Shown here in pieces: positions 2,138-62,221 of a stretch of DNA of 64,000 nt. A program made the position numbers and the translations under genes. The DNA is from an uncultured Candidatus Babeliaceae bacterium. Lineage in GTDB: Bacteria; Babelota; Babeliae; Babelales; Babelaceae. Within the stretch, counting starts at the first letter, position 1; the number at the start of each line of letters is the position of its first letter. Where the stretch lies: contig OY969927.1 in the NCBI GenBank assembly GCA_963704655.1, forward strand, positions 928,001-992,000. Reading direction: 5' to 3'. Below the pieces are notes generated by a model. It saw nothing but the letters and a program-made list of their open reading frames with translations. It did not search any database and was not told where the DNA came from.

Positions 2138-2212
2138 CGCTAACCCTTCGACGAGCTCAGGATGAGCGAGCGTTTACTGCTGAGCGCTAGTCGAGGCATC
2201 AGGATGAGCGCC
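2138..2212 (+). repeat. Composite palindromic REP-like element (family A with nested unit)
   Basis: CGCTAACCCTTCGACGAGCTCAGGATGAGCG plus TGCTGAGCGCTAGTCGAGGCA; core recurs at 27846, 31708, 60961, 62087. Confidence 0.85.
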
Positions 2213-2252
2213 GGTTGGATAGCACAAAGTTTAAGTTGAAAAAGAGAGAGTA

Positions 2253-3077
2253 ATGAAACAAAATTATATTTTAAGTTTTTTAGCACTTACTATCTTGAGC
2301 ATTCAAGCCGTTATTGAGTGGGAGATCGTTATACCAACATATAATAACCAAGAATGGTGCATTAAAAATATAGAGTCGGTCGTTAAACAAACCTACCCAT
2401 ACTGGCACGCAACTATTATTGTAGACTGTGCAACAGATAAAACAGAAGAATTACTACGTGAATTTGTAGCAATGTATCATCTTGAACATAAAATAACTAT
2501 CATCGTTAATAAAGAAAACCAAGGTGCCCTAGCAAATATTTACTACGCAGTAACAGCATGCGCACCACATAAAGTTGTCGGCCTTCTTGATGGTGACGAT
2601 TGGCTCGCAGACAATGAGGTTTTAGAGTATCTTTCTGAGATATATGAAAAGAAAAATATCTGGATGACATTTGGTCAATTTGAACTTTGGCCAGAAAACC
2701 GCATTGGTCACTGTCGCCCATATCAAAAAGACATTATAAAAGAAAATAAATTCAGACTGCTCAACGGCCTATTGCCTTCACACTTTAGAACATTTTATGC
2801 GTGGCTCTTCCAATTAATTAAAAAAGAAGATTTGCTCTACAAAGGTAAATTCTTTCCGGTAACTTGGGACCTTGCCATGATGTTCCCTATGATCGAAATG
2901 GCCGGCAAGCACCATAAATGCATATCTAAAGTACTTTATATCTACAACATACAAAACCCGTTAAATGATTTTAAAATTCATACCAAACTTCAAACAAAAC
3001 TTAATTACTTAATTCGTTCAAAAAAAAGATATCAACCACTTAAAGAAAAACCAATTTTCTCAAGGGAAAAGTCATGA
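2253..3077 (+). CDS. Glycosyltransferase family 2 with signal peptide
   Basis: IVIPTYN, IIVDCATD, LLDGDDWL motifs. Confidence 0.85.
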   Translation: MKQNYILSFLALTILSIQAVIEWEIVIPTYNNQEWCIKNIESVVKQTYPYWHATIIVDCATDKTEELLREFVAMYHLEHKITIIVNKENQGALANIYYAVTACAPHKVVGLLDGDDWLADNEVLEYLSEIYEKKNIWMTFGQFELWPENRIGHCRPYQKDIIKENKFRLLNGLLPSHFRTFYAWLFQLIKKEDLLYKGKFFPVTWDLAMMFPMIEMAGKHHKCISKVLYIYNIQNPLNDFKIHTKLQTKLNYLIRSKKRYQPLKEKPIFSREKS

Positions 3078-3916
3078 AGAAAATACTAAAGACTCTATTG
3101 CTCTTTCTCATTGCTTGTCCATTGGCATTAAGCAGTTTTACTGAATTTGAAATGGTTATTCCAACTTATAATAATGAACAATGGTGCATTAAAAACCTTG
3201 AGGCGTTAGTGCAGCAAACCTACCCCCATTGGCATGCAACTATTATTGTAGATTGCGCAACAGACCGTACCGCAGAACTTCTAACTGAGTATATTATCAA
3301 TAATAATTTACAAGACCAAGTTACCCTTATTATTAACACAGAAAGATGTGGTGCGCTTGCAAACATTTATTATGCAGCAAAGGCCTGTCCACCACATAAA
3401 GTAATTTGCCTATATGATGGCGATGATTTTCTGGCAGATGATGAAGTTTTAGCTTATTACGCAGATCTTTATGACACGCATGATATCTGGGTAACCTATG
3501 GGCAATTCCAATTATGGCCCAGTGGTGTTCATGGCTGGTGCTCCCCATATTCACAGTATGTCATTAAAAATAATCTCTTTAGACAAGTACAGGATATACC
3601 ATCACACTTTAGAACCTTTTATGCATGGCTCTTTCATAAAATAGACAAAGGAGACCTTCTTTATCATGGTGATTTTTATAAAATGACCTGGGATATGGCT
3701 ATTATGTTTCCGCTTATGGAAATGGCTGCAGAACGTCACTATTTTGTTTCTAGAATCACGTATCTCTATAATGAGTCAAATCCTTTAAACGATCACAAAG
3801 TCGATAAAAAGTTACAACAAAAGCTTGGCAAGATTATTAGATCTAAGCCTTACTATCAACGCCTTGATTATAAATATGTTCCAAACAAGGGCAAACAAAA
3901 AATGAAGCGAGGGTAA
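3074..3916 (+). CDS. Glycosyltransferase family 2 with signal peptide (paralog of 2253..3077)
   Basis: MVIPTYN, YDGDDFL, shared PSHFRTFYAWLF; ATGA overlap. Confidence 0.85.
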   Translation: MKKILKTLLLFLIACPLALSSFTEFEMVIPTYNNEQWCIKNLEALVQQTYPHWHATIIVDCATDRTAELLTEYIINNNLQDQVTLIINTERCGALANIYYAAKACPPHKVICLYDGDDFLADDEVLAYYADLYDTHDIWVTYGQFQLWPSGVHGWCSPYSQYVIKNNLFRQVQDIPSHFRTFYAWLFHKIDKGDLLYHGDFYKMTWDMAIMFPLMEMAAERHYFVSRITYLYNESNPLNDHKVDKKLQQKLGKIIRSKPYYQRLDYKYVPNKGKQKMKRG

Positions 3917-3922
3917 CCCATT

Positions 3923-4819
3923 ATGATCTACAAAACTGAATCACCTTTAATCACCACAACCGTGCACCCTGAGTGTCCGTCGCCGCTCGTGGTGAGCGAA
4001 GTCAAGACAGTGCGTTTCGCACCATCCATAGCGAAGACGGATGTATCGAAGGGCTGGTATGCGAATTTTTATCTCATACTATTTTTTATACTTGGCATTC
4101 AAAGCACCACTTTATCGGCTGCGCGTGTGGCATTATGCGCAGTAGCAACAGGGAGATACGATGTCTTTGCCGAACAACTTATAGAATCTGCACGACAATA
4201 TTTTTGTACCGAGCATGATGTGCATTATTTCATCTTTACCGATGGAACCATAACCCCAGCGCCAGATGTTACCACTGTTTTCCAAAAACGTCTTGGCTGG
4301 CCGCGTGACACGTTAATGCGTTTTTCAATTTACTTGCAGCACAAAGACCTTTTTGACTCATTTGATTACATTTACGCAACGGATGCAGACATGCTCTTTG
4401 TAGCGCCTGTTGATAGCGAAATTTTATCAGATTTGGTTGGAACTAAACACCCTGGTTATATAAAAAGGCGTGGCACCTATGAAGAAGGCAACAAACTATC
4501 AACAGCCTATGTTGCACGCCATGAAGGAAAATACTACTTTGCCGGCGGTTTTTATGGCGGTTCAAGAGAAAATTTCTTTAAGATGCTCCAGACACTGGTA
4601 GATAATATAGAAACAGATCTTCAAAAGAACTTTATAGCCGTCTGGCATGACGAAAGTCATATTAACCGCTATTTTATCGATAATCCACCAACAAAAATCT
4701 TATCTCCAGCCTACTGTTGTCCAGAAAACGTTAATCCAAACTACTATGACCCTGCAATTCTTCGCCTGAAAAAAAAGCTTATCGCACTGGACAAAAACCA
4801 TAGTGAATTAAGGAAATAA
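3923..4819 (+). CDS. Glycosyltransferase family 6 (ABO/alpha-1,3-Gal(NAc)T-like) with in-frame palindromic insertion at the N-terminus
   Basis: AVATGRY, YFIFTD, TDADM (DxD), YYFAGGFYGG, AVWHDESHINRY. Confidence 0.85.
   Translation: MIYKTESPLITTTVHPECPSPLVVSEVKTVRFAPSIAKTDVSKGWYANFYLILFFILGIQSTTLSAARVALCAVATGRYDVFAEQLIESARQYFCTEHDVHYFIFTDGTITPAPDVTTVFQKRLGWPRDTLMRFSIYLQHKDLFDSFDYIYATDADMLFVAPVDSEILSDLVGTKHPGYIKRRGTYEEGNKLSTAYVARHEGKYYFAGGFYGGSRENFFKMLQTLVDNIETDLQKNFIAVWHDESHINRYFIDNPPTKILSPAYCCPENVNPNYYDPAILRLKKKLIALDKNHSELRK
3960..4053 (+). repeat. Nested palindromic element inside the GT6 coding sequence
   Basis: CCGTGCACCCTGAGTG...GCGAAGACGGATGTATCGAAGGG shared with 23395-23475 and 30300-30412; inner module shared with 53944-54016. 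Confidence 0.85.
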
Positions 4820-4820
4820 T

Positions 4821-60935: not shown

Positions 60936-60948
60936 AAGACCGCGTATT

Positions 60949-60995
60949 GTCATCCCGGATCTCGCTAACCCTTCGACAAGCTCAGGATGAGCGAG
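60949..60995 (+). repeat. Family-A palindrome nested in family-D flank
   Basis: GTCATCCCGGAT-CTCGCTAACCCTTCGACAAGCTCAGGATGAGCGAG. Confidence 0.85.
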
Positions 60996-61069
60996 TGTGA
61001 TAGTGGCGGGCAGGCGACACATAAACCAAGAAAATACTTTATACACACTTAAATATAGAAAGGGCCATC

Positions 61070-62071
61070 ATGGAAATGATAGTATATAACTACACCGGAG
61101 TTGGCATTATCTTTTTGGCATCATTAATCGTTCTTTTAGGATTATTTCTCCTGAAATCGATATATCTGGTGCAACAAGCAGAAGCTATTGTTATTGAGCG
61201 CTTTGGTAAATACCATCGCACGCTCGGCGCAGGAATTCACTTTGTAGTGCCATTTATGGATGCTGCAAGATCAGTTTCTTGGACGTATTTTAAAGAAGAG
61301 GCACGTCGCTACTACCGCTATATGAGAAACTTATCTGTTATCGATTTGCGTGAAGCAGTGTACGATTTCCCTAAACAAAACGTTATCACAAAAGACAACG
61401 TTACTATGGAAATTAGCGCATTATTATATTATCAAGTTACTGACCCAAAACGCGCAGTATACGAAGTATCTAACTTGCCAGAAGCGATTGAAAAACTTAC
61501 GCACTCAACATTACGTAACGTAATCGGCTCAATGGACCTTGATGAATCTCTCGTTTCACGTGATCAAATAAATATGAGATTGCGTTTAATTCTTGATGAA
61601 GCAAGTGACAAATGGGGCGTTAAAGTCAACCGTGTTGAATTGCAAGAAGTTAATCCACCTGCGGATATTCGTAGCGCTATGGAAAAACAAATGCGTGCAG
61701 AACGCGACCGCCGTGCGGTTATTTTAGAAGCTGAAGGTTTAAAACAAGCTGCTATTTTACAAGCTGAAGGCAAACAACAGTCTCAAGTTCTTGCTGCACG
61801 TGGTGAAGCTGAATCTCGTTTAATTAACGCAGAAGCTGAAGCACAGGCACGCTTGCAAATAGCACTTGCTGAAGCACAGGCTATCGAACGCTTGCAAAAT
61901 GCATTGCCACATGGTGATTCTGCACAGTACATGCTCACACAGCAGTACATCAAAACGTTACCTTCTATGATGGAAGGCAAAGATAACAAAATGATACTAG
62001 TCCCTTATGAGGCTACCAGTATCATGGGGTCTTTAGCAACCATCAAAGAGCTTTTTAACGACAAAAAATAG
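61070..62071 (+). CDS. SPFH/stomatin (QmcA-like) protein
   Basis: IERFGKY, QNVITKDNV, TLRNVIGSMDLD, WGVKVNRVE, MEKQMRAER. Confidence 0.92.
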   Translation: MEMIVYNYTGVGIIFLASLIVLLGLFLLKSIYLVQQAEAIVIERFGKYHRTLGAGIHFVVPFMDAARSVSWTYFKEEARRYYRYMRNLSVIDLREAVYDFPKQNVITKDNVTMEISALLYYQVTDPKRAVYEVSNLPEAIEKLTHSTLRNVIGSMDLDESLVSRDQINMRLRLILDEASDKWGVKVNRVELQEVNPPADIRSAMEKQMRAERDRRAVILEAEGLKQAAILQAEGKQQSQVLAARGEAESRLINAEAEAQARLQIALAEAQAIERLQNALPHGDSAQYMLTQQYIKTLPSMMEGKDNKMILVPYEATSIMGSLATIKELFNDKK

Positions 62072-62076
62072 CATAA

Positions 62077-62221
62077 GATCCCGGATCTCGCTAACCCTTC
62101 GACAGGCTCAGGATGAGCGAGTCTTTAGTGCTGAGCGAAGTCGAAGTAGCTTTCGGCATTCACTCTGGGTGAGCGGTCTTGGATCCGCTCATGGTGAGCG
62201 AAGTCGAATCCATTTGAGCGG
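62077..62221 (+). repeat. Cluster of nested palindromic elements
   Basis: GATCCCGGATC[A unit]GAGT, CTTTAGTGCTGAGCGAAGTCGAAGTA, CCGCTCATGGTGAGCGAAGTCGAATCC..GAGCGG. Confidence 0.85.

Follow-up and report, generated by a model that had tools for sequence, protein, structure and literature searches.

The stretch of DNA analysed here (the window) is 64,000 nucleotides (nt) long and represents positions 928001-992000 of a genome that is a single contig of 1,298,077 bases (38% G+C, 96% complete) from a Babeliaceae-like member of the Dependentiae. The Dependentiae are intracellular parasites of protists. The window displays 12 loci with about 25 copies of short GC-rich hairpin modules, termed A, A', B, C and D, as determined by k-mer and half-motif catalogues. 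A preliminary description of the window had listed about 20 elements, a count that is corrected here. In the whole genome there are about 170 module loci, which total ~8.5 kb and of which the shortest (12-17 nt) are likely chance matches.

Modules A and C follow the same plan on one strand. The handle at the 5' side, CGCTC or CCGCTC, precedes a 4-bp stem whose loop of 13-14 nt reads TGAGC-NN(N)-GTCGAA, and the second stem arm is followed by closing pairs matched to the handle. A further hairpin module, the fifth variant, is also built on the A/C plan. In A' the plan is the same with a hairpin always present in mid-loop. B belongs to the B/G family, some 35 hairpins with a variable outer stem and a conserved pair of internal loops, GAAGC...GCGAAG. 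D has an 8-bp stem, a 5-nt loop and oriented flanks. The stem sequence covaries across families and copies, e.g. ATCC/GGGT, GTGG/CCAT, ACAC/GTGT and ATAC/GTAT, and three or more consecutive pairs close the loop in 83 of 111 cores compared with 37 of 111 when the partners are shuffled. The non-Watson-Crick stem pairs are G.T on the strand that reads TGAGC...GTCGAA, where the other strand would have A.C mismatches; this confinement to one strand mildly favours recognition of one strand and would agree with recognition in single-stranded form. The inner hairpins frequently have GNA or GNRA loops.

With two mismatches or fewer, the A pattern has 42 copies in the genome and the backward-read pattern has none. 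No 12-mer is more frequent in the genome than the one that ends A (55 copies), and the other top GC-rich 12-mers belong mostly to A, A' and C. Half-motifs give 19-140 genome matches and 0-2 in reversed controls; the exception is the short A' right half (93 matches and 59 in the reversed control), which was used in the catalogue at one mismatch or fewer only. A right half is found within 250 nt for 32 of the 37 A' left halves. The piece between the halves is 15-30 nt long in 26 copies and 45-79 nt long in 6, and it forms a perfect central hairpin that differs in sequence in almost every copy, whereas the shell is nearly invariant. The five modules of the preliminary description are thus present at their places far above chance. 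Its view of them as non-autonomous, multi-copy and mostly intergenic also holds, as 87 of the 111 cores genome-wide lie outside called open reading frames, while 88.7% of the genome is open reading frame.

The coordinates of the window loci, and of the nuclease genes discussed below, are collected in the table. Borders of sub-modules were read from rulers and tables and may be in error by 1-2 nt.

Table. Hairpin modules and composites of the window (window coordinates) and module-bracketed GIY-YIG genes elsewhere in the genome (genome coordinates)
Position	Strand	Feature
2138..2168	-	Module A, simple 31-nt unit: handle, 4-bp stem, 13-nt loop TGAGC-NN-GTCGAA, stem, closing pairs
2169..2210	+	42-nt segment: forward unit inside a second copy of the 5' half of A
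3960..4054	+	Three-layer composite: A' shell 3960-3975/4042-4053, B-type stem 3976-3981/4036-4041, C variant 3983-4033
23396..23474	-	A'[B[unit]]; inner unit opposite in orientation to the shell
25800..25832	-	Module B alone, degenerate B/G-family copy
25885..25914	-	Another B/G-type hairpin on its own: GAAGC...GCGAAG core between an outer stem and a short inner stem-loop
27847..27994	.	148-nt composite: A 27847-27877 (-), second A 5' half 27914-27925, A' with central hairpin 27946-27994 (+)
30303..30409	+	A'[B[half unit + forward unit + tail]]
31051..31079	-	Module D, simple: 8-bp stem, 5-nt loop; matches the published SRM search pattern
31710..31740	-	Module A in frame within a PMT-family membrane glycosyltransferase gene (31166-32656)
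53937..54014	-	C variant; loop holds an opposite-orientation A-like unit (53973-54000, +) right after TGAG
54015..54035	+	Stemless partial unit, handle and loop motif; abuts the 53937..54014 composite
60949..61016	.	D left arm 60949-60959, A 60963-60993 (-), G-module fragment ~61005-61016; D right arm absent
62077..62221	.	D hairpin split by ~90 nt, then C 62185-62221 (+)
Genome 482674 and 488381		Nuclease genes bracketed by inverted A; 98 and 101 amino acids, 77% identical
Genome 474676		Nuclease gene bracketed by A'; 106 amino acids
Genome 767678		Nuclease gene bracketed by C; 117 amino acids
Genome 375561		Nuclease gene bracketed by the fifth variant; 71 amino acids, truncated

The modules are found within the hairpin loops of one another. 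The A'[B[A]] nesting at 23396-23474 and 30303-30409 is as described before, and the second of these holds the largest A' filling of the genome, 79 nt. The filled C at 53937-54014, the solitary B at 25800-25832 and the simple D at 31051-31079 are likewise in agreement with the preliminary description. The element at 3981-4029 had been regarded as a simple C but is not free-standing, being enclosed in the A'/B shell at 3960-4054; its C variant carries one extra small hairpin relative to the commonest C form, and the nested fold of the composite is recovered by single-strand folding. Both free-standing B-type hairpins are part of an apparent ~85-nt tandem repeat (25790-25960) in the spacer between two minus-strand genes.

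Two loci had been described as D filled with A. Module A does lie beside D at both, but the locus at 60949 has the left arm of D only, and at 62077 the probable right arm (62177-62185) is degenerate, with 6 of 8 bases. The order at 62077-62221 is D left arm (62077-62087), A (62089-62119, -), a forward unit (~62120-62151), a fifth-variant unit (62156-62176, -) and the D right arm. The D-left/A junction is identical at 60949-60993 and 62077-62119, which are 1.1 kb apart and flank a 333-amino-acid open reading frame in direct orientation.

Two genes of the window contain modules that are translated. The A copy at 31710-31740 contributes about 11 residues to the predicted glycosyltransferase. The C-terminal tail of a GDP-mannose 4,6-dehydratase is the translation of the 27847-27994 composite; the Pfam domain of this protein ends at residue 340 of 410, and thus the tail is outside of the domain.

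The position of the inner module is regular over the genome. In A' the inner hairpin follows TGAGTG in 32 of 32 complete copies, and central hairpins range from 15 to 79 nt. Filled A units have the inner module after TGA in at least six cases, the filled C has it after TGAG, and in D the filling is in the loop. The A' copies form a graded series that starts with a hairpin having a 3-base loop, continues with a second hairpin placed in that loop and flanked by the repeated loop triplet, and ends with the three-layer composites of the window. Several composites are present in 3-5 diverged copies. The inner modules are also found free-standing.

The window itself displays no GIY-YIG match and no Y1 transposase (other transposase families were not searched there). 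In the genome, nine small GIY-YIG open reading frames (Pfam E-values 2e-14 to 5e-18) and a UvrC-like one are present. Five of the nine are bracketed by inverted copies of a single module type with the 5' handles outward; thus the search for module-flanked GIY-YIG genes that had been proposed yielded small nucleases bracketed by A, A', C and the fifth variant. GIY-YIG is the sole Pfam domain of the bracketed open reading frames (E 2e-14 to 6e-17), and the nuclease alignment shows conservation at the Tyr, Arg and Glu positions. The nearest solved chains are UPF0213 proteins (E 2.5e-14). NCBIfam has no family for the nucleases and gives sub-threshold matches only.

The two A-linked proteins share 77% identity with each other and 51-59% with the A', C and fifth-variant proteins, and a further GIY-YIG type of 83 amino acids shows 27-28% identity. 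This gradient indicates that divergence of the nucleases follows that of the hairpins. Hairpins of the B/G family adjoin the 83-amino-acid type in this genome (position 231546) and in two relatives, G022 and G004. The hairpin in G004 that closely resembles the solitary B of the window (25800..25832) adjoins an 82-amino-acid GIY-YIG gene, and all four of the nuclease loci examined in G022 are bracketed by inverted hairpin repeats. The A' cassette (474676) is bracketed by two copies of the last ~46 nt of a host gene, which differ by a few bases. A duplicated host-gene end is expected if the cassette moved by recombination.

On these grounds, the modules of the window are probably (a probability of about 0.6) dispersed gene-less copies of related hairpin families that have cognate GIY-YIG nucleases elsewhere in the genome, in an architecture of the Ssn/SRM type. 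Copying of the modules driven by these nucleases would be a further step, one that we infer.

The type of system has been published, as that of the Ssn nucleases, single-strand-specific GIY-YIG enzymes with NTS/SRM hairpin repeats. SsnA of Neisseria is a 94-amino-acid GIY-YIG enzyme which binds an oriented hairpin repeat only as single-stranded DNA, and repeat-flanked homologues are reported in many phyla, with the layout of gene plus repeats likened to an insertion sequence (Chenal et al. 2025, PMC11893778). The likenesses to the present system are a single GIY-YIG domain of ~100 amino acids, a gene bracketed by inverted hairpin repeats, an oriented hairpin dispersed in many intergenic copies, numerous nuclease-repeat pairs with specificities of their own and an enrichment of symbionts among the carriers; Rickettsia is named among the SRM-rich genera. 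The published SRM pattern has four matches in this genome (0-3 in Markov controls), three of which are module D, including 31051-31079. None of the matches in the genome is A, A', B or C.

Unlike the SRM described there, the core of A, A' and C has a 4-bp stem and a conserved 13-nt loop, and B is a stem with GAAGC/GCGAAG internal loops. The present 1.3-Mb genome contains at least four or five nuclease-repeat pairs, and its modules nest in the loops of each other and insert in frame in genes. The words "nested", "Dependentiae" and "Babel" do not occur in the main text of PMC11893778. Literature searches from 2024 on for Ssn, GIY-YIG and hairpin repeats listed that paper as the only relevant one; among the titles listed for Dependentiae, GIY-YIG and palindromic repeats there was nothing on such repeats, and searches with sequence and peptide strings gave chance matches to primers and peptides only. 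In these searches and in that main text neither the motif nor nesting was found to be described, and the supplements of PMC11893778 may list related motifs. The kind of system is that of Ssn/SRM, and its layering here is unusual. New in the present case are the assignment of five modules to nuclease-linked families, layered nesting with a comparative example, a head-to-head rule, polymorphism at orthologous loci and in-frame copies.

The preliminary description had suggested another mobiliser, i.e. that the modules are REP/REPIN elements moved by RAYT, an IS200-like HUH Y1 enzyme. REP/BIME elements of enterobacteria and pseudomonads are short extragenic hairpins that are recognised in single-stranded form, and copies of the repeat lie on both sides of the gene for their enzyme. 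There is a general likeness, as the modules are short, GC-rich, extragenic hairpins in many copies, and REP elements also form mosaic clusters with other motifs; the ~108-nt inverted doublets of G022 add to it. A search with Y1_Tnp (PF01797) gives no match in this single-contig, 96% complete genome and matches 6 of 14 control genomes, so the modules are not considered RAYT/REP elements. In addition, the genes flanked by modules encode GIY-YIG nucleases, REP clusters are linear mosaics and not hairpins within hairpin loops, and the units here are singlets or head-to-head pairs. The REPIN-type inverted doublet is not the usual dispersed form: within 60 nt there are no tail-to-tail pairs, and all 11 close pairs are head to head. 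A RAYT-based origin is accordingly very improbable. REP/BIME and RAYT are cited in the discussion of PMC11893778.

GIY-YIG homing endonucleases have an added DNA-binding domain and double-stranded targets and are not accompanied by dozens of gene-less hairpin copies. The nucleases described here differ from them, being single-domain proteins with dozens of such copies. A free-standing cassette between host genes with a duplicated host-gene end is a feature shared with GIY-YIG homing genes and with mitochondrial mobile open reading frames, and it suggests spread by break repair. Rickettsia palindromic elements, of about 100-150 nt, are found in frame within genes of an obligate intracellular bacterium and are translated. 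The in-frame copies of the window are similar in this, but the Rickettsia elements are longer and there are two clear in-gene cases here.

Gain and loss of the modules is evident in relatives. The A pattern has 42 copies in this genome and 3, 0, 1, 6 and 0 copies in five genomes of the same genus, so that the modules have expanded in this particular lineage. The pattern occurs patchily in the family and order (9 of 41 genomes, this one among them). G022, of the same GTDB family, carries 101 copies of the A pattern as inverted pairs, i.e. about 50 doublets. Most elements of G022 are ~108 nt long, with two inverted units, handles outward, inverted ends of ~40 nt and a variable AT-rich centre, and they look like gene-less miniatures of a nuclease cassette. 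With regard to MITEs, which are deletion derivatives of autonomous elements, the end orientation of these doublets matches that of the nuclease cassettes; the singlets of the present genome do not match it.

Eleven elements of the window were compared with the syntenic region of sister genomes, among them G001, G002, G003 and G004 (67-85% identity; 77-85% for the closest genomes). For eight of them one sister or more has matching sequence on both flanks; those at 23394, 30302 and 31052 have no such match. At all eight comparable loci, at least one sister has a spacer that is too short to hold the element. The spacer lengths in nt (sister/window) are 26/135 at 2138, 49/176 at 3960, 21/132 at 53937 and 19/119 at 60949, all in G003, and 10/187 at 25800 in G001; another pair is 21/211. 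The spacer of a sister contains a different module at five loci. For example, G001 also lacks module A at 2138 and has a B/G hairpin there, and at 60949 one module of another kind is present in each of G004 and G001. At 27847, G004 has a single A' in opposite orientation, and G003 and G002 have no element. The in-frame copy at 31710 is absent from G003, G001 and G002, where the gene is shorter by 24-30 nt, always by a multiple of three; in G004 this spot is occupied by D plus C, likewise in frame, and is 48 nt longer. The orthologue of 62077 in G004 is a D hairpin whose loop is filled by a G module, and the arms of D in the window are parted by A and three units. At no other locus can two fillings of one shell be compared directly. 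Thus the inner modules occur independently, lie in the loops of outer ones and vary between orthologous loci (8/8).

Four public DNA sequencing runs, which consist of short contigs, contain many contigs that are identical to the window; among the public runs listed as matching it, none is of RNA. A 151-nt contig spans 23337-23487 with zero differences. Loose ends of contigs at unit borders are other repeat copies, and none of the contigs in the four runs bridges an element with an insertion or deletion.

Simple units that lie close together obey a rule of orientation. All 11 pairs separated by no more than 60 nt have a head-to-head orientation, of which one, self-overlapping, is questionable, and no tail-to-tail pair is found in this genome at that distance. 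The handles usually abut directly, often between units of different families. Joints of this type agree with cleavage 5' of the hairpin, which is where SsnA cuts.

The rule also bears on the most serious rival explanation. The hairpins may be used by the nucleases in some other way and may have spread as a passive mosaic, by recombination, slippage and palindrome correction, without copying driven by a nuclease. We regard this as a minor but substantial possibility, well below the nuclease-linked reading. Short stretches of identity between the modules could act as microhomology, the D-left/A junction is shared by the two loci noted above, and the copies of composites (3-5, diverged) may be viewed in the same way. 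In PMC11893778, a role in transformation is demonstrated for Ssn, not mobility, and for Neisseria a restriction of incoming single-stranded DNA is proposed. A passive origin would also resemble the GC clusters of yeast mitochondria, which are described as mobile between sites, under a constraint to form hairpins and subject to "merger and shuffling" into composites (Wu and Hao 2015, PMC4478555). These clusters are, like the modules, GC-rich palindromic mini-elements in an AT-rich genome; they differ in being organellar, in having no known cognate nuclease gene, in their unrelated sequences and in their defined AG target nucleotides. Against a passive mosaic, the 42 near-identical A copies compared with 0-6 in the genus would require efficient copying, and different modules have been gained independently in the same spacers of different genomes. 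A strict head-to-head rule, even between families, is unexpected from random recombination, and the A' cassette with its duplicated host-gene end indicates active transfer.

A role as structured RNA, i.e. as terminators, stabilisers or regulatory RNAs whose layers are selected variable helices, is unlikely. The covarying stems, the frequent GNA/GNRA inner loops and the G.T pairs on one strand only are features that such RNA would have. In Rfam, nothing on the modules of the window was found at the gathering threshold or at E<=5 (only the transfer-messenger RNA, tmRNA, reached threshold), and 12 loci of other phyla had no match at the gathering threshold. The units have no orientation bias relative to co-directional flanking genes (36 same, 25 opposite), and they are present in convergent, divergent and tandem spacers roughly in proportion to the occurrence of these spacers. 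The in-frame copies in two genes and the sisters that have no element at the same loci also speak against a selected RNA, as do the folding energies. When folded as single-stranded DNA the composites have z-scores of +0.8 to -3.1, the lowest being the 27847-27994 composite (-3.1) and that of the 62077-62221 composite being -2.1; one of ten has an energy that beats all 200 shuffles. The folding proposed in the preliminary description thus gives mostly ordinary energies, and thermodynamic stability is not the signal.

Where the insertions occur within a module was analysed with a split test that allows a break anywhere in A. Breaks up to position 13 are accounted for by a 42-nt insert, present in 4-5 copies, and by a 65-nt case; a single 95-nt case has A broken at positions 21/23. 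Module C was found without any break. The 42-nt insert, bounded by a direct repeat of ~12 nt as at 2169-2210, recurs at 4-5 loci. The 62077 orthologue and the split test suggest the loops as the target of insertion, with events that are few and partly copies of each other. Alternatively, insertions elsewhere in a module may simply not leave two halves that can be recognised. A generic stem-complementarity search for filled units was discarded, as it gave 119 matches and 101 in a parallel-pairing control. The notion that simple units sit at the tips of longer host hairpins was also dropped as a general rule: pairing is above background only at the first 1-2 flanking positions (mean run 1.26, background 1.0 +/- 0.11), and one terminator-like example is an exception.

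The core motif extends beyond the Dependentiae. The exact 23-base A pattern is present in at least 117 stretches, and the matches listed include records of Novosphingobium and Sphingomonas (Sphingomonadales), Dehalococcoidia, Chloroflexota, Anaeromyxobacter, Binatia, Acidobacteria, Thermodesulfobacteriota and others. The stem covaries likewise in these loci, and a Thermodesulfobacteriota locus has the same nesting position. In a Cellvibrionaceae locus a mini GIY-YIG gene is 12 nt from the motif. A search for homologues of the A nuclease in five distant motif-carrying genomes gave eight loci, and at seven of these the homologue is 49-53% identical. The core is within 330 nt at five of the eight (in four of the five genomes), typically forward upstream and inverted downstream; two further loci show a variant core, as read by eye, and the homologue with 30% identity is accompanied by a different repeat.

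Several observations weigh against the nuclease-linked reading or against the insertion of modules into loops by these enzymes. A mini GIY-YIG gene is present in only 2 of the 117 listed 8-kb motif loci, the Cellvibrionaceae locus being one of the two. An intact nuclease bracketed by D was not found. Extra GIY-YIG genes occur in 8 of 9 relatives with the A pattern and in 16 of 32 without it, a weak co-occurrence among kin that are not independent. SsnA cuts a few bases 5' of its hairpin and not in the loop (PMC11893778), which fits the head-to-head joints but not insertion into loops. Units have no bias with respect to the replication strand (38/38 and 19/16), where an enzyme working on the lagging-strand template might have given one. 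No target-site duplication is readable at the orthologous junctions, since the sisters are only 67-85% identical and the junctions are blurred. Detection of filled units needs both halves intact and is thus biased to central breaks, and the recurrent 42-nt insert is probably one event that was later copied. To our knowledge, transposase-like covalent intermediates are not known for GIY-YIG nucleases. Cleavage and mobility by the nucleases of this genome are an unproven proposal.

The process may be envisaged as follows. The nucleases would nick single-stranded DNA at or beside the hairpins, and repair copying from another repeat, by template switching or gene conversion, would insert a module there. 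The exposed sites would be the extruded loops and the sequence on the 5' side of the handle, and modules would therefore accumulate at them. Composites, once formed, could be copied as units. Correction by template switching from arm to arm is known for quasi-palindromes, and the varied but perfect central hairpins of A' most probably arose in this way.

Other features of the window are unrelated to the modules or only adjacent to them. Five further GC-rich repeats (26883-26952, 43263-44084) are of another family, one located after tRNA genes. This is a separate GC-rich element of ~55 nt with 12 copies in the genome and none in the reversed control. In 10 of the 12 it comes directly after an apparent tRNA 3' end of the opposite strand, in the manner of a conserved tRNA trailer hairpin, and a tRNA end is lacking for the copies at 43937-43986 and 44035-44084. 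The repeats at 43263-43310, 43453-43493 and 26883-26952 were placed in this family from the repeat table and by eye, and are outside of the 12-copy count. The tmRNA gene (43489-43876, -) has its 3' end duplicated ~180 nt away (43303-43333 and 43484-43514, with three or fewer differences in 31 nt), which could be the scar of an element that integrated at the tmRNA.

Two families of paralogous open reading frames are also present. Positions 57104-59637 (-) contain three in tandem (268, 245 and 261 amino acids) that have blocks of 96-98% identity and arrays of a 36-nt (12-residue) repeat. Positions 2253-5642 contain a run of four, of ~275 amino acids each, which share a conserved N-terminal stretch, are probably glycosyltransferases and have two of the hairpin composites in their spacers.

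With respect to significance, the role of the nucleases outside Neisseria and the multiplication of the repeats are left open in PMC11893778. The present genome is a compact natural experiment on both, as it has four intact nuclease genes, four hairpins that can be told apart, dozens of gene-less copies, relatives without them and rules by which the modules compound. For annotation, the widespread core motif yields recurrent spurious peptides, whereas in the glycosyltransferase and the dehydratase of this genome the insertions are real and in frame. Small, orthogonal, sequence-specific nucleases for single-stranded DNA would also be useful tools.

A broader and more tentative proposal, which we hold to be rather less likely than its opposite, is that single-domain, Ssn-type GIY-YIG nucleases are the mobilisers of a distinct class of single-stranded-DNA mini-elements, in which several orthogonal families within one genome would cut and seed the loops and handles of each other and so build layered composites. 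If this is true, the families parasitise one another and represent a GIY-YIG counterpart of the biology of IS200/IS605 and RAYT, and this would explain the presence of a near-identical hairpin motif across many bacterial phyla.

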